From the IMG/VR virus record IMGVR_UViG_3300042544_001941: DNA of 64,000 nt. One strand, written 5' to 3'. The number at the start of each line of letters is the position of its first letter. Position 1 is the stretch's first letter. The stretch comes from a virus. A program made the position numbers and the translations under genes. Positions 6,283-59,838 of the stretch are shown piece after piece. The notes below the pieces were generated by a model. It did no database searches. It worked only from the letters and a program-made list of their open reading frames with translations, and was not told the DNA's origin.

Positions 6283-6299
6283 TTTGTGATATTTATTAA

Positions 6300-6404
6300 T
6301 AGAGTTTAATTGGTTTGGTCGCCGTTAAACGATAACGATTATAAAACGAAAAGGAGGTATTCAAATCTCGGCAAAGGGTCTTCGGACCTTTTGTTCGTTT
6401 ATAC
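6300..6404 (+). ncRNA. Putative small late RNA 'A' carrying an extended Shine-Dalgarno sequence
   Basis: Follows TATTTATT (6290-6297); no canonical start codon; hairpins gtttaattgg/ccgttaaac, gaggt/atctc and aaagggtc-TTCG-gacctttt. Confidence 0.5.
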
Positions 6405-6423: not shown

Positions 6424-7368
6424 ATGTTAAATAAAGTCAAACTTCACGTGTTTGGTGACTCTTTTACACAAACATTTAAATCTCATAGAACAGGTGGTTC
6501 AGCTTGGGGTAACAAGTATATGGATTACATTGGTGAGGTTCCTGAAAATTACACAGAATTAATCGCTAACCATTTCAATTACGATTTACACAATTACGCA
6601 GTTGGTGGCTGTTCAAATTATACAATATTCGATAAATTTTTCGAGAATAGAAAAAACATATCAGAAGGTGATATTGTAATTTTTGGTTGGACCGCAATAA
6701 ATAGATTTAGAATTGCAAATCACCAAAACAGATACGTTGATATATTACCAAATACTCCTCACCCAAAACAAAATGATGATGTTGATTTAAGAACAACACA
6801 AGAAATTGCTATTAATAGAGATTCGTATAGTATCTATTGGAAAGAGTTGGAACAATTTGTAAAAATCATAAATGAATTGTTAAAAAATAACACAGTATAT
6901 CATTGGAGTTGGTGTTTACCATCAAGTGATATTGTCGATAACATATGGTCAGAAGATAATCTCAGCCATAAAAATGTTATGATGGCCAGGTCTTGGAAAA
7001 ATATAGATATTGACGTTAAAAATGCAATTGGTAGAAGTTGTGATTTGTTACTTGATTTAGCCAAACCGTTTGATATGGATGAAATTAAGTCGTTAGTGAA
7101 TAGTGGTAAGAGAGTGTTCGGTGTTAATATTGAATTGGCTCCGTTAAACATTTTAGGACCATTTTATCAAACATTTAATTGTGTTGAATATAATTCCACC
7201 AACCACAGAAAAGAATGTTTTAAATTGTTCTTACCGTATTATAGTTACGAAACAATTAGACAGGAAACGAATGGTAATATACCTGACATCCATTATAGTA
7301 GAAATGGACACAAAGATTTAGCAAATACATTTATAGAATTACTTGAAACAAAAAAACCCATCGAATGA
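6424..7368 (+). CDS. SGNH/GDSL-hydrolase-like protein
   Basis: FGDSFT block I, NYAVGGCSN block II, C-terminal DIHYSRNGH. Confidence 0.7.
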   Translation: MLNKVKLHVFGDSFTQTFKSHRTGGSAWGNKYMDYIGEVPENYTELIANHFNYDLHNYAVGGCSNYTIFDKFFENRKNISEGDIVIFGWTAINRFRIANHQNRYVDILPNTPHPKQNDDVDLRTTQEIAINRDSYSIYWKELEQFVKIINELLKNNTVYHWSWCLPSSDIVDNIWSEDNLSHKNVMMARSWKNIDIDVKNAIGRSCDLLLDLAKPFDMDEIKSLVNSGKRVFGVNIELAPLNILGPFYQTFNCVEYNSTNHRKECFKLFLPYYSYETIRQETNGNIPDIHYSRNGHKDLANTFIELLETKKPIE

Positions 7369-23410: not shown

Positions 23411-23423
23411 ATATTTATAAGAT

Positions 23424-25219: not shown

Positions 25220-26659
25220 TTGAAAAAGATAACCCTATTAATTTTATTTGTGACACTAACATCAATTAAACTCCTTGGTCAGACCTACACCCAAAGTTTT
25301 GTTGATAAATGTACCGGTGAAAAAAAGATAGCCACCACAACTATGATTAATGGGTATGCGACCGTATCTTTTTATAATCAAATAAGAACATTCACACCTT
25401 TAGAAGTTCAAACAGGAGTTGTACAGGGTTGGTTATTATCAACAAAAACTACATATGAATCATTAACCTGTCCCGTTATAAATAATCCTATAGTACAACA
25501 AGCAGTAACAAACGCAGCTGCGGCAACTGCAACCGCAGCCGCCGCGTCCGCAGCATCATCAGCCGCAAGTTCTGCGGCGTCATCATCGGCAAGTGCTGCG
25601 GCAAGTAGTTCTGCAAGTTCAGCGGCTGCAAGTTCAGCAGCATCAACACCTCCACCAACACCACCAACACAAAGTAGCTCAACTCCACCACCCGCTAGTG
25701 GTAGTTCATCACAAAGTGGAGGTAGTTCTTCATCATCTTCATCACAAAGCTCGGGTAATTCATCTGAAAGTAAGACGGAAACAAAAACCGAAACTAAATC
25801 AGAAACAAAGAGTGAAACTAAATCCGAATCTAAATCAGAATCTAAATCTGAAAGTAAGAGTGAAGAGAAGAAGGAAGAATCTAAATCAGAATCGAAAGAA
25901 GAAAAAAAGGAAGAAAGTAAATCAGAAGAGAAAAAAGAAGAAAAGAAAGAGGAAAAGAAGGAAGAGAAAAAAGAAGAAAAGAAGAAAGAAAAGGCTGCAG
26001 TATCTAATCCAATGTTACTTTCTTCAGATTTATCAACAATAGAATCTCCCGATGGTAGATGGTTACAATCTGCAACAATCGGAGTGTCTAAATCTTCATT
26101 GATGGGTGATAAAAGTTATTCGGCGAATACGGTGATTATGAGTGATTTAAAAACATTCATTGTAAGTGGTGGATATACTAAGATGGATTTTTCAAACGGT
26201 AAATTAAACGCGATACATTCTTATTCAAGTGCGTTTGCATATTTGAATGGGAACTATATGAACTTATTAGGATACACGTGGATTAAACCAACACAAAAGA
26301 AAGGTGTATTTGGTTACAATTTAGGTCTTATTAATTTATTATTGAAAGATGAACAGAATAAAAAGTTTAACCATAATATGTCAACATCAGTTGTAGCGTT
26401 TTGGACAAAACCATTTCAATATAGTAGAAAATTAACGATATCTCCACAGGTGTTCACAATGTTTGCACCTATATCATATAATAGCGCCGCACAAGTAACC
26501 ACAGTTAATAGACATATGGGATTTCTATTAGGTTCTTCTTTTGATTATAAGATAAGTAAAAGATTCGGTCTTAGTGTGAATTATAAATTAAGTGGTAACA
26601 CTGCACCGGGTTCTCCGTTCTTAAGTAATTTCTTGGTTGGTAGTAGAATGATTTTATAA
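25220..26659 (+). CDS. Secreted protein: N-domain, long Ala/Ser-Pro-Glu/Lys linker, C-terminal beta-barrel
   Basis: TTG start, signal peptide, low-complexity tracts, aromatic beta-strands. Confidence 0.7.
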   Translation: MKKITLLILFVTLTSIKLLGQTYTQSFVDKCTGEKKIATTTMINGYATVSFYNQIRTFTPLEVQTGVVQGWLLSTKTTYESLTCPVINNPIVQQAVTNAAAATATAAAASAASSAASSAASSSASAAASSSASSAAASSAASTPPPTPPTQSSSTPPPASGSSSQSGGSSSSSSSQSSGNSSESKTETKTETKSETKSETKSESKSESKSESKSEEKKEESKSESKEEKKEESKSEEKKEEKKEEKKEEKKEEKKKEKAAVSNPMLLSSDLSTIESPDGRWLQSATIGVSKSSLMGDKSYSANTVIMSDLKTFIVSGGYTKMDFSNGKLNAIHSYSSAFAYLNGNYMNLLGYTWIKPTQKKGVFGYNLGLINLLLKDEQNKKFNHNMSTSVVAFWTKPFQYSRKLTISPQVFTMFAPISYNSAAQVTTVNRHMGFLLGSSFDYKISKRFGLSVNYKLSGNTAPGSPFLSNFLVGSRMIL

Positions 26660-26730
26660 AAAAACCCCCAATGTAGAAACATCAGGGGTTCATTGACAAA
26701 AAAACTAAACGTATCTCTTAACGATACTAA
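26660..26730 (-). ncRNA. Putative antisense sRNA 'D' ending in terminator
   Basis: Complementary to 14004-14040, 22387-22405 and 22089-22104; ends in aacccc..ggggg-T-run hairpin. Confidence 0.5.
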
Positions 26731-26750
26731 TAAAATCTATACTATTATTT

Positions 26751-27098
26751 TCAAATAGTCAAGTCCTTATGTAATTTTATTATTTTTGAACAAACTTCAT
26801 AATCTTCAACCTGTTCAAAATACGGCATTACATCCCTAAGTAGGGTTTCCTTATCGTCTTTAGAAAAGGTGAAATCGGTGTCCCATTCCAATCCTCTAAT
26901 TTTTGCAACAACGGATAAGGTCAATTTCTTTTTTCTTGTGGTTCGTAATAATTCGAATAAATCTAAAATGTTTTTGTAAATGACTTCTTTATTACCGTCG
27001 TAAAAATCGGTGAAATCATTAAAACTACCCTCAATGTTTAATACAATGTCGGGTTGAGTACTTCTTTTTCTCGTAGGTTTGGGTGCGTAGTTTGACAT
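26751..27098 (-). CDS. Hypothetical protein with UVR-like C-terminus
   Basis: FEQVEDYEVCSKI. Confidence 0.65.
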   Translation of the reverse strand: MSNYAPKPTRKRSTQPDIVLNIEGSFNDFTDFYDGNKEVIYKNILDLFELLRTTRKKKLTLSVVAKIRGLEWDTDFTFSKDDKETLLRDVMPYFEQVEDYEVCSKIIKLHKDLTI

Positions 27099-27160
27099 TT
27101 AAAATAGTGTTTGGTTAGAAGTACAAAATAAATAAAAATTTGGAATATAAAAAAATATTT

Positions 27161-27313
27161 TTATTTTTTGTTAACAACTATTTCTTCCAAATAATCTATC
27201 TGTTTTTTCAGAGAATACACCTCTTTTCTATAATGCTCCACCACGAAATACAAAGAAATGAGCATCAATAAATTTATAACAAATAGTATTGTGTTGTTTC
27301 GTTTTTGATTCAT
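27161..27313 (-). CDS. 50-aa TM + coiled-coil protein (not in ORF track)
   Basis: MNQKRNNTILFVINLLMLISLYFVVEHYRKEVYSLKKQIDYLEEIVVNKK*. Confidence 0.55.
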   Translation of the reverse strand: MNQKRNNTILFVINLLMLISLYFVVEHYRKEVYSLKKQIDYLEEIVVNKK

Positions 27314-27374
27314 AAAATAAATTAGGTTACGATTAAAAAAGAAGGGAGGAGGGATTAAACCCTCCCCTCCAAAC

Positions 27375-27560
27375 TTATTTTACTTCAGTTGAAGTGCTGT
27401 CAGTTGGAATCTGACTGGTTGTTGAATCATTTGCTGTTACAGCAGTTGTGTCAACTTGAGCTGCCGTTGAGTCAGTTGTTTCAGTTGTGGTTGACCCGTT
27501 ACCACAGGCAGTTAATGCCAATGAGGCAAAAATACCAAAGATTAATATATATTTTTTCAT
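27375..27560 (-). CDS. Small Thr/Ser/Asp-rich lipoprotein
   Basis: ALTAC lipobox; repeated D-S/T-T. Confidence 0.8.
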   Translation of the reverse strand: MKKYILIFGIFASLALTACGNGSTTTETTDSTAAQVDTTAVTANDSTTSQIPTDSTSTEVK

Positions 27561-27609
27561 ACTATTGTAAATATACGTAATTTTATCGATAAAACAAAAT
27601 ATTTGAAAA

Positions 27610-27716
27610 TAAAAAACCCCAACAAGATGTCGGGGTTTTAAGGTCTTTCGGTGGGTTCAACCCCACTTACTTATGAAAAAAAACGAAAAGGTAATCGACA
27701 AAGAGAACCTTTGAGA
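27610..27716 (-). ncRNA. Putative small late RNA 'B'
   Basis: TATTTATA (27718-27725, minus), no ORF, gtggg/cccac hairpin, terminator aaaacccc..ggggtttttt. Confidence 0.5.
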
Positions 27717-27753
27717 ATATAAATATATATGATTCTCATAAAAAGTCAACTAT

Positions 27754-29775
27754 TTACAATATTTTTTTTGTAAATGTTAATTTTTCGTCTTTAAATTTAA
27801 GTGTAATAGAAGTATTTTCAACAATATTACCTTTCAATATCTCTTCACTTAAGAAATCTTCACATAGATTTTGAATAATCCTTTTAATCGGTCTTGCACC
27901 ATATTCTTCCTCAGAATTTAGTTCGTGAATCTTCGCAATTACGGATTTGTCAAATGTAATCTTAAAGTTCTTCTCCTTTAATCGGTCATTCAATCGTGAC
28001 AATTCAATATCAATGATTTTTTTCAATGTGTCATCATTTAAAGGGTTGAACGTGATAACATCATCAATACGGTTTAAAAACTCGGGATTGAATTGTTGTT
28101 TTAGTGCTTTTTGAATTATCGATTTCTTCACTTCAGCTTTTTGAGTTTCTTTACTGTTAGTTGCAAAACCCATACCATCACCAAAATCCATAACCTTTTT
28201 AGCACCTACGTTTGATGTCATAATAATCAAAGTATTTGTAAAATTTACTTTTCTTCCAAAAGAATCGGTTAAATGTCCCTCATCAAGTATTTGTAATAAG
28301 ATATTGAATACGTCTTTATGTGCTTTCTCAATCTCATCAAATAATATTACAGAGAATGGATTGTTTTTAACTTTTTCAGTTAATTGACCTCCTTCGTCAT
28401 AACCAACATAACCAGGAGGAGAACCAATTAATCTTGATACATTATGTTTCTCCATAAACTCACTCATATCAACCCTAATTATTTTATTAGGGTCACCGAA
28501 TAATGTTTCCGCTAATGATTTTGCCAAGAATGTTTTTCCAACACCTGTTGAACCTAAGAAGATGAATGAACCAATTGGTTTATTGGTATCTTTAATACCT
28601 ACACGATTTCTTCTTATCGCTTTTGAGATTGTCTTAATCGCATCATCTTGACCAATAACTTTAGACGATAGTATATCTTCTAATTTTAATAACTTTTCAG
28701 TTTCTTTAGAGTCTAATTTACTAATTGGAACTCCTGTCATATTGGATACGATTTCGTACACATCTTCGACAGTCACAGGAGTTTTATTTTCCTTTTGTTT
28801 TATCGTCCATTTTTCTTTTTCATCATCGAGTTTCTTTAAAATCTTTCTTTCCTCATCTCTCAATTTAGCGGCTTGTTCGTAATTTTGATTTTTAACTACT
28901 TGAACCTTTTTTTCTTTGATAGCTTCCGCGTCCTTCTTAAGTGTTTCAATTATCTCAGGAATTTTACCCGAGATTTTTTTGTCTGAACCTAATTCATCTA
29001 AAATATCAATTGCCTTATCAGGAAATTGTCTATCAGTAATATATCTTAAAGATAAAGTTGTTATTGTCTCAACAACATTGTCTTGATATTCAACCTTATG
29101 AAATTCTTCATATGAAGACTTTAAGTTCTTCAATATTTCAATCGTTTCAGATTGTGTTGGTTCCTTCAAGATAATTTTTTGAAATCTTCTAACCAATGCA
29201 GAATCTTTCTCAATATGTTTTTTAAATTCATCAAATGTCGTTGCACCGATACATTGCATTTCACCTCGAGCTAATGCGGGTTTTAAAATATTAGCAGCGT
29301 CCATAGCACCACTAGCATTACCTGCACCTACCATTGTGTGTAATTCATCAATGAATACAATTACATTAGGATTTTCTTGAAGTTCGTTTAATATCGCCTT
29401 AATTCGTTCTTCAAATTGTCCTCTATATTTCGTACCAGCAACAAGTGATGTTAAATCTAACGACACCAATCTTTTATCCAACAAATTACTCGGACAAACA
29501 CCTTTGTGAATTTGTATTGCAAGTTTTTCAACGAGAGCAGATTTACCAACACCCGCATCACCTACAATTACAACGTTATTCTTTTTTTTGCGAGAAAGAA
29601 TTTGGGAAATTCTCTTCACTTCGTTATCTCTCCCAACAACCGGGTCAATCTTTCCTTCTTCTGCGAGTTTAATTAAATCTCTTGAGAAATTATCAAGGAT
29701 TGGAGTTGTAGAAGTTCCTCTTCTATTTTTTTGATAAGGTTTTGGACCCCCGTCTTCTAAAAAGTCTACCGACAT
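27754..29775 (-). CDS. clpC: ClpC-like AAA+ ATPase lacking the N-terminal domain
   Basis: Two Walker A (GDAGVGKS, GSTGVGKT), UVR middle domain (QNYEQAAKLRDE), GMGF ClpP-docking loop. Confidence 0.9.
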   Translation of the reverse strand: MSVDFLEDGGPKPYQKNRRGTSTTPILDNFSRDLIKLAEEGKIDPVVGRDNEVKRISQILSRKKKNNVVIVGDAGVGKSALVEKLAIQIHKGVCPSNLLDKRLVSLDLTSLVAGTKYRGQFEERIKAILNELQENPNVIVFIDELHTMVGAGNASGAMDAANILKPALARGEMQCIGATTFDEFKKHIEKDSALVRRFQKIILKEPTQSETIEILKNLKSSYEEFHKVEYQDNVVETITTLSLRYITDRQFPDKAIDILDELGSDKKISGKIPEIIETLKKDAEAIKEKKVQVVKNQNYEQAAKLRDEERKILKKLDDEKEKWTIKQKENKTPVTVEDVYEIVSNMTGVPISKLDSKETEKLLKLEDILSSKVIGQDDAIKTISKAIRRNRVGIKDTNKPIGSFIFLGSTGVGKTFLAKSLAETLFGDPNKIIRVDMSEFMEKHNVSRLIGSPPGYVGYDEGGQLTEKVKNNPFSVILFDEIEKAHKDVFNILLQILDEGHLTDSFGRKVNFTNTLIIMTSNVGAKKVMDFGDGMGFATNSKETQKAEVKKSIIQKALKQQFNPEFLNRIDDVITFNPLNDDTLKKIIDIELSRLNDRLKEKNFKITFDKSVIAKIHELNSEEEYGARPIKRIIQNLCEDFLSEEILKGNIVENTSITLKFKDEKLTFTKKIL

Positions 29776-35457: not shown

Positions 35458-35469
35458 GTATTTATATAT

Positions 35470-37227: not shown

Positions 37228-37282
37228 ACCTTTATTTTTTGAATAAAATAGGATAGATTTTTAACAAATAGTATTTATAGTT

Positions 37283-40042: not shown

Positions 40043-40141
40043 AATTTGGTTTTAGTATTATATAAATATATTTTGGAAATACAAGAATTTTTCTTTATAT
40101 TTTAATTAACACCATAAATTAAAATAATATGAAGAAAATTA

Positions 40142-40567: not shown

Positions 40568-40605
40568 GTTGGGATATCGATGTATTTATAGTATAAAAAC
40601 TGTAA

Positions 40606-59818: not shown

Positions 59819-59838
59819 ATTATAAATATATTTTTAAT

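Follow-up and report, generated by a model that had tools for sequence, protein, structure and literature searches.

AgvB and AsxR are prophage-encoded anti-sRNAs of enterohaemorrhagic E. coli (Tree et al., 2014, PMC4104026; PMC12197685) and, in the cited sections of these articles, their pairing cancels the activity of the partner sRNA. Like RNA B, the RNA described here, both are phage-borne, trans-encoded and terminator-ended sRNAs that pair with an sRNA instead of an mRNA. The partners named in those sections are host sRNAs (GcvB and FnrS) and Hfq is involved, whereas B and its predicted partner, RNA A, come from one lytic-type giant Bacteroidota phage. A further difference is that the pairing predicted for A and B is two-part and brackets a Shine-Dalgarno (SD)-like element, and A and B are known from sequence alone. 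Sponge RNAs include SroC, the sponge of GcvB (PMC4474525), and SprY, the sponge of RNAIII (PMC12197685). As these articles describe them in the parts cited, a non-coding RNA titrates another non-coding RNA and causes its masking or decay, as is proposed for A and B, but these sponges are host-encoded or mRNA-derived and titration between A and B is predicted only.

The c4 antisense RNA of phages P1 and P7 resembles B in being structured and in using two short loop or single-stranded segments that pair with two separate stretches around a ribosome-binding site, and differs from it in acting on the mRNA of its own operon, where it blocks translation of a real gene (both points from the c4 section of PMC12197685). 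Unlike the c4 target, A lacks a start codon after its SD-like element and is located 21 kb from B, and there is no sequence or Rfam kinship with c4. Flavobacteriales have an rpsU with an extended SD and an autoregulated bS21, and their ribosomes hide the anti-SD (PMC9976891, PMC13000453). A is like this rpsU in having a long SD-like stretch, and the phage carries its own bS21. However, the Flavobacteriales system is an mRNA-rRNA interaction without an sRNA, and the block targeted by B was not found before bacterial rpsU in the search described below.

Genomic setting and relatives

The window analyzed here is a 64-kb stretch of a very large T4-like phage genome, that of a giant freshwater phage. 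It encodes the terminase, portal, head protease and ribosomal protein bS21, the last of these 12 kb from B, and contains a GOLLD RNA, a tmRNA and seven tRNA genes. A blastn search in distant mode of 50,697 GenBank phage records gave no match to locus A or locus B, and a query with the phage bS21 found no bacterial relatives.

In IMG/VR, 295-423 relatives of the ClpC-like gene that adjoins locus B were retrieved, with protein identities of about 80%. The ClpC of the most diverged genome, used as a query, mostly recovered the same relatives and added two A/B pairs. The genes flanking A, used as anchors, found no related loci, and A homologs were gathered by DNA search. Among the matches listed, a scan of IMG/VR with a loose B pattern gave mostly chance hits together with 16 real copies of B. 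One true homolog of RNA A was present on a short contig of 7.4 kb (L438, NZ_JBJTND010000053.1) that was binned into a Flavobacterium sp. MAG, which is either a weak hint of the host or a binning artefact. Freshwater Flavobacteriales or Chitinophagales are the candidate hosts. The features of both loci are collected in Table 1.

Table 1. Features of RNA B and RNA A in the window
Feature	Position	Strand	Remarks
RNA B	27606..27716	-	non-coding, about 105-110 nt; ends inferred from promoter motif and terminator
-35-like hexamer TTGACT of the B unit	27744..27749	-	promoter scan, TTGACT-16-TATATT
Sigma-70-like site TTGACT-16-TATATT	27749-27722	-	overlaps invariant ATATATTTATAT
TATTTATA motif	27718..27725	-	within invariant ATATATTTATAT; 99.4% column identity, 67 sequences
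Hairpin P1	27689..27710	-	stem AGGUU/UUACCU, 11-nt loop
Helix-2 seed CUCUUUGUCGA	27695..27705	-	in apical loop of P1; complementary to A 6368-6378
Helix-1 seed CCUUUUCGUUUU	27680..27691	-	12 perfect pairs with A 6343-6354
Hairpin P2	27651..27666	-	GUGGG-GUUGAA-CCCAC, loop invariant
Linker GACCUU	27640..27645	-	invariant
Intrinsic terminator of B and U tract	27607..27639	-	terminator scan; hairpin 27639-27613, then T run
RNA A	6301..6402	+	TATTTAT at 6290-6296, 5' hairpin, SD-like GGAGGU at 6353-6358
Helix-1 target AAAACGAAAAGG in A	6343..6354	+	overlaps first two G of SD-like GGAGGU
Helix-2 target UCGGCAAAGGG in A	6368..6378	+	UCGG single-stranded; CAAAGGG is 5' arm of A terminator
A terminator CAAAGGGUC-UUCG-GACCUUUUG	6372-6393	+	

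Structure and conservation of RNA B

B followed ClpC in 78 of 80 IMG/VR loci and the remaining two loci end at a contig edge. In most loci B was 84-95% identical, compared to about 80% for the ClpC protein. A gene of 221 amino acids separates ClpC from B in about 10 loci, and the block upstream of B (TTATAAATAGTTGAC), which was kept in 68 sequences, is still present in them. This block travels with B past the inserted gene, and B is hence an independent unit. The stretch directly after the promoter motif, which is the start spacer, was only 58% identical.

The single-sequence fold of B had an energy of -32 kcal/mol (z = -3.0). In an alignment of 68 sequences, 11 of the 21 pairs had changed on both sides, which none of 500 shuffles reached, and 94.8% of the cells in the three helices (P1, P2 and the terminator) were paired, with shuffled and slid controls nowhere near this value. 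The fourth pair of P1 changed from U-A to A-U in five sequences and the fifth was A-U in seven, U-A in seven and U-U in the rest. The terminator stem was paired in 98.6% of cells. Changes on both sides occurred at all five pairs of P2; these include GG/CC to AA/UU while the terminator stays unchanged, and an anti-terminator fold within B was rejected for this reason.

The original prediction placed B on the minus strand between TATTTATA and the terminator, and named a plus-strand B, a simple paralog of A, as the finding that would count against it. The promoter-like site, the terminator and the G-U pairs all agree with the minus strand. One terminator G-U pair, present in 57 of 68 sequences, becomes C-A if read from the plus strand; further G-U pairs in P1 and P2 are valid on the minus strand only, and only on that strand does a T tract lie 3' of the hairpin. 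A further element of the prediction, UUUUUUUUCAUAA as an anti-start element against AUGAAAAAA-type starts, had to be abandoned, since its sequence is not conserved: the T run differs in length among relatives, some of which have CAAAA, UUAAA or AUAA in place of CAUAA.

Across 67 B sequences, identity was 99.8% in the P2 loop GUUGAA, 96.5% in the P1 loop, despite its being unpaired within B, and 80.6% in the terminator loop. A conserved reading frame was absent from B and indels in T runs disrupt every frame. Rfam had nothing at the gathering score for B, and the best match at E-values up to 5 scored 27.9 bits against a threshold of 55. With its own promoter-like site and terminator, its lack of a conserved reading frame and its covarying minus-strand structure, B has the attributes of a base-pairing sRNA gene and is very probably a real and novel structured sRNA of the phage.

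The invariant P2 loop GUUGAA and linker GACCUU are features of B for which pairing with A gives no account, which suggests that B has another partner besides A. A natural variant of B is found on a 25-kb IMG/VR contig (L312:2502-2660, handle G051), where a deletion of 38 nt removes P1 and both A-pairing seeds and joins the promoter block straight to ...UCGUUUUUUUUC, with P2 and the terminator intact. Altered helix-1 seeds occur in the B sequences of two close relatives (CCUUUCG in L003:5028-5187 and CCUUCUUCG in L061:5040-5197), and both contigs end short of A. Ten RNA runs contained 5-9% of the words of positions 26600-29000. In the four metatranscriptomes examined, nearly all depth fell on conserved parts of ClpC from other organisms and the depth over B was about 1; these values derive from contigs, which carry no information on strand, ends or level.

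RNA A and the shared promoter motif

The AAACGAAAAGG block of A was invariant across 41 distinct A sequences, barring the lineages described below as altered. GAGGU of A can pair with AUCUC to give a small internal hairpin, which both A:B helices would disrupt. The SD-like element is not followed by a start codon (ATG, GTG or TTG), which separates A and B from type I toxin-antitoxin systems, and indels in loop length shift any reading frame in A.

The TATTTATA motif of the B unit is also found upstream of the terminase, portal, protease and bS21 genes. The window contains 20 such sites and, by comparison of the motif list with the ORF list, about 15 of them precede the start of a same-strand ORF by no more than 60 nt. 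Sites include 230-237, 23412-23419, 35459-35466, 37272-37279, 40061-40068 (-), 40583-40590 and 59821-59828 (-). Several are just 2-5 nt before the ATG, including those of the terminase and portal genes, and those of the protease and bS21 genes are 15-18 nt before it. Since both small RNA units share the motif of the structural genes, joint late expression of A and B may reasonably be expected. We infer that A and B are both transcribed, that their expression coincides late in infection, and that they meet.

The gene directly after A (6424-7368, +) encodes a product with 34% identity (E 4e-35) to that of the gene which separates ClpC from B in about ten relatives (L012:5034-5699), and both homologs have a GDSF motif near the N-terminus. 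This homology suggests that a mobile gene family settles beside both small-RNA loci.

In one lineage of A, represented by five IMG/VR contigs of 28-45 kb (L142, L122, L133, L188 and L193), CAAAGGG is replaced by CAUUGAGG, which introduces two U-U mismatches into the terminator of A itself. Neither ClpC nor B was found on the contigs of the L142 lineage, even 28 kb downstream in G043, suggesting that the gene order differs or that B is absent.

Complementarity between A and B

The sequences on which the prediction was built were all found in place, as were its two G-U wobbles. On the plus strand, exact copies of AAAACGAAAAGG occur in the window only at 6343-6354 and 27680-27691, and TCGGCAAAGGG (6368-6378) differs from TCGACAAAGAG (27695-27705) at two positions, each a G in A and an A at the B locus. 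At the DNA level the two loci thus repeat each other directly along the plus strand, and their RNAs are complementary only if A is transcribed from the plus strand and B from the minus strand. Both of the G-versus-A differences then give G-U pairs in the A:B duplex. As had been proposed, the duplex flanks and partly covers the SD of A, with 12 and 11 bp on either side of GGAGGU. The helix-1 seed of B starts in the 3' arm of P1 and extends into the single-stranded, U-rich linker.

A and B are 21.3 kb apart in the window, a distance that sets B apart from cis-antisense RNAs, and about 24-29 kb apart in four relatives (G012, G001, G030 and G032). They lie on opposite strands in the window and in the relatives checked (the same four and G004).

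RNAduplex gave -26.1 kcal/mol for the seed regions; 0.07% of the dinucleotide-shuffled B sequences and 0.67% of the shuffled A sequences paired this strongly. The match between A and B is above chance (p 0.0007-0.007), although not overwhelmingly so. The seed of B was also scanned against all 60-nt windows on both strands of three genomes. A ranked first in the 64-kb window (12,788 windows; -29.0 kcal/mol, runners-up -27.9 and -26.4 kcal/mol) and first in a diverged relative of 311 kb that is 93% complete (G032, 41,418 windows; -35.1, next -29.9). In a complete relative of 336 kb (G030), A ranked sixth (-31.1, best other -35.1). The other top sites were purine-rich, inside ORFs and at unrelated positions; A alone among the high-ranking sites was non-coding, and no other site recurred at one locus across the three genomes. 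When both RNAs were folded at full length, dimer formation gained only -6.2 kcal/mol in the window, which 24% of shuffled 5' domains match, and the minimum-energy dimer retained the A terminator and formed helix 1 alone.

Conservation and covariation of the pairing

Both loci were available from 24 genomes, the window and 23 IMG/VR contigs, and these include all six genomes that are at least 81% complete. The cognate duplex was kept in all 24 (-21.9 to -32.4 kcal/mol). As is characteristic of anti-sRNAs, B is thus complementary, in a conserved manner, to a functional part of a second non-coding RNA. In co-folds, the minimum-energy structure contained helix 1 in every pair and helix 2, counted at nine or more pairs, in 10 of the 24.

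One diverged lineage (c1334, G032 and the contigs of that lineage with A only or B only) has CGAAAGG in A and CCUUUCG in B, each one base shorter. The B of this lineage also has a U-to-C change opposite a G of A in helix 2, and a U that adds a pair to helix 1. Pairing was 7-9 kcal/mol worse when B of the diverged lineage was combined with A of other lineages. At the purine-pyrimidine position of helix 2, G-U, A-U and G-C were found among the 24 genomes and A-C never. Changes that give wobbles were A-to-G in helix 2 (c0580, c0734, c1334 and G032) and C-to-U in helix 1 (c1334).

Permutation of partners among the 21 distinct pairs gave p = 0.024, and p = 0.28 when the diverged lineage was left out, indicating that the covariation signal amounts to one or two evolutionary events. 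Covariation between the loci, the lack of which would have counted against the original prediction, thus gives a weak signal that is owed to a single lineage.

In G044 A is shortened and B is not, and a register shift with a G-U pair rescues the pairing; a matched deletion is therefore helpful and not required. Helix 2 of G052 and G055 contains an additional A that is left uncompensated in B. The CAUUGAGG change in the L142 lineage of A costs helix 2 two base pairs. A search of IMG/VR with CAATGTCGANNNCCTTTTCG, the pattern of a B compensated for this change, gave 14 matches, none of them B-like.

Seven of the 11 helix-2 positions in A belong to the 5' arm of the terminator of A itself, and the conservation of helix 2 in A consequently needs no B. 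The A-to-G changes in helix 2 are equally tolerated by this stem, the 3' arm of which (CCUCUUUGU) resembles the loop of B. The invariant AAACG of A lies 5' of the stretch that can pair with the 13-nt 16S tail, as that tail is given in the cited part of PMC9976891, and we infer that it is accounted for by pairing with B and not by anti-SD pairing. Two further contacts were considered and rejected. For a contact between the A loop GGUC and GACC of B all bases are invariant and covariation is uninformative, and for a contact between the P2 loop of B and UUCAA of A the A side is not conserved.

Proposed pairing and alternative explanations

A phage-encoded sRNA/anti-sRNA pair is the most likely reading of these loci, and we would give it about an even chance. 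We are similarly balanced on the complementarity itself, namely that its conservation between B and A is real and probably functional. Since the match between A and B is genuine and every one of the 24 genomes with both loci retains it, one RNA probably masks the other. The original prediction, which offered either an sRNA/anti-sRNA pair or a two-piece RNA, is borne out in that B is a structured gene whose complementarity to A is retained throughout; its weaker side is the covariation confined to one lineage and the position of helix 2 in the A terminator.

According to the proposed mechanism, B would be a stand-alone sRNA of about 105 nt whose 5' domain is a two-part antisense element against A, the parts expected to contact A being CCUUUUCG and the P1 loop. 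The first contact would be helix 1, in which CCUUUUCGUUU(U) of B pairs with (A)AAACGAAAAGG of A over 11-14 bp predicted to be open in both RNAs. The P1 loop of B would next grip the single-stranded UCGR of A as a toehold and would then invade the 5' arm of the A terminator hairpin (helix 2, 8-11 bp), where its resemblance to the 3' arm (6385-6393) could allow it to displace that arm. Pairing would thereby cover the 5' half of A's SD-like extension (GAAAAGG) and open both the GAGGU/AUCUC hairpin and the terminator hairpin of A. With its SD-like half covered and its hairpins open, A would be masked, or unstable and exposed to 3' exonucleases. B would in that case be an anti-sRNA or sponge of A; equally, A may titrate B.

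Alternatively, A and B may be independent functional RNAs, each under its own constraints, with a complementarity that arose incidentally and serves no purpose in the cell. A would then be kept for its SD-like element, SD hairpin and terminator, and B for a separate protein or RNA partner. This is the most probable of the alternatives, although we consider it rather unlikely. It fits with conservation of the whole of B and not of the seeds alone, with helix 2 in A being largely the terminator arm, with a net dimer energy no better than that of shuffles, with the loss of covariation once a single lineage is removed, and with the A+U-rich, purine-rich sequence, which yields numerous duplexes whose energies come within 1-5 kcal/mol of that at the A site. 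It does not readily explain the raw match (p about 0.001-0.007), ranks of 1, 1 and 6 for A in the three genome-scale scans, in which A is the sole recurring non-coding match, the matched 1-nt deletion in the diverged lineage, or the invariance of the P1 loop and of AAACG in A, for which there is no intramolecular reason.

The complex of A and B could also be the active form, a two-piece RNA that serves, for example, as a displayed bait for the ribosome tail, in which two helices enclose AGGUAUUCAAAUC of A as an internal loop of 13 nt. In its favor, the same promoter motif occurs at both loci, A and B are both present in all six near-complete genomes, and the internal loop and the 3-nt spacer of B are retained in most genomes. 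However, the loop of A between the helices varies (UAUUCAA, UGUUCUUA, UAUCCAAC), helix 1 buries half of the SD-like element, the L312 variant has lost the whole pairing domain of B, and the L142-lineage contigs carry A with neither B nor ClpC within 28 kb. We therefore regard a two-piece RNA as improbable.

Somewhat less probable again is that B is mainly a regulator of mRNAs, or the 5' leader or attenuator of a lipoprotein gene (27560-27375), with A a decoy or a chance look-alike. The U-rich seeds of B could bind the A-rich start regions that are typical of Bacteroidia in the cited part of PMC13000457, but no start region came near the rank of A in the three scans, where the other top matches were inside ORFs, and the helix-1 18-mer preceded rpsU in none of 72 bacterial matches. 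As for a leader, the lipoprotein gene is always 3' of B and one RNA-library contig of a relative links the B terminator region to it. Against this, a separate TATATTTAC motif sits a few bases ahead of the ATG of this gene, the terminator of B is strong, and covariation backs P2 and the terminator and no anti-terminator.

The lipoprotein gene (27375-27560, -) encodes a product of 61 amino acids with a signal ending in ...LALTAC followed by a Thr/Ser-rich tail. In the relatives that were inspected this gene likewise lies 3' of B, several of seven aligned relatives share its motif CGTATATTTAC close to the start, and a homolog was read in L012. Host rpsU was considered separately as a target of B and rejected at the stringency of the 18-mer used (AAACGAAAAGGAGGTRTT), since none of its 72 bacterial matches lies before rpsU; one of the 72 is a phage contig inside a Flavobacterium MAG.

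Least probable is that the loci are DNA-level direct repeats recombining around the 21-kb segment, or that B is a plus-strand paralog of A: blocks of 12 and 9/11 bases are indeed repeated directly, and in one order, along the plus strand, but they are spaced unequally (by 13 nt at A and 3 nt at B), the two mismatches between them are of the G-U type, each block lies within a promoter-to-terminator unit that shows RNA covariation, and the G-U pairs and T tract put B on the minus strand, by which these explanations are largely refuted.

Implications for the phage

The sRNA/anti-sRNA pair may be part of a larger scheme, in which A is a decoy whose rpsU-like extended SD grips the anti-SD tails of ribosomes that lack bS21 and B gates A, so that the two would form an RNA switch on the hidden 16S tail of the host ribosome. 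B would then act by covering half of the SD-like element of A and opening the A terminator. We consider this scheme unlikely. If it were true, the phage could time or limit interference with the bS21 autoregulation of its host while it installs its own bS21.

Known phage anti-sRNAs target host sRNAs in enterobacteria; if A and B do form an sRNA/anti-sRNA pair, the phage would be regulating its own RNA with its own RNA. The pair would also be among the first candidate riboregulators described for phages whose hosts follow unusual rules of translation start. Given the SD look-alike in A and the bS21 gene of the phage, the A/B pair may offer a testable entry point to how bS21-encoding phages handle the host ribosome.
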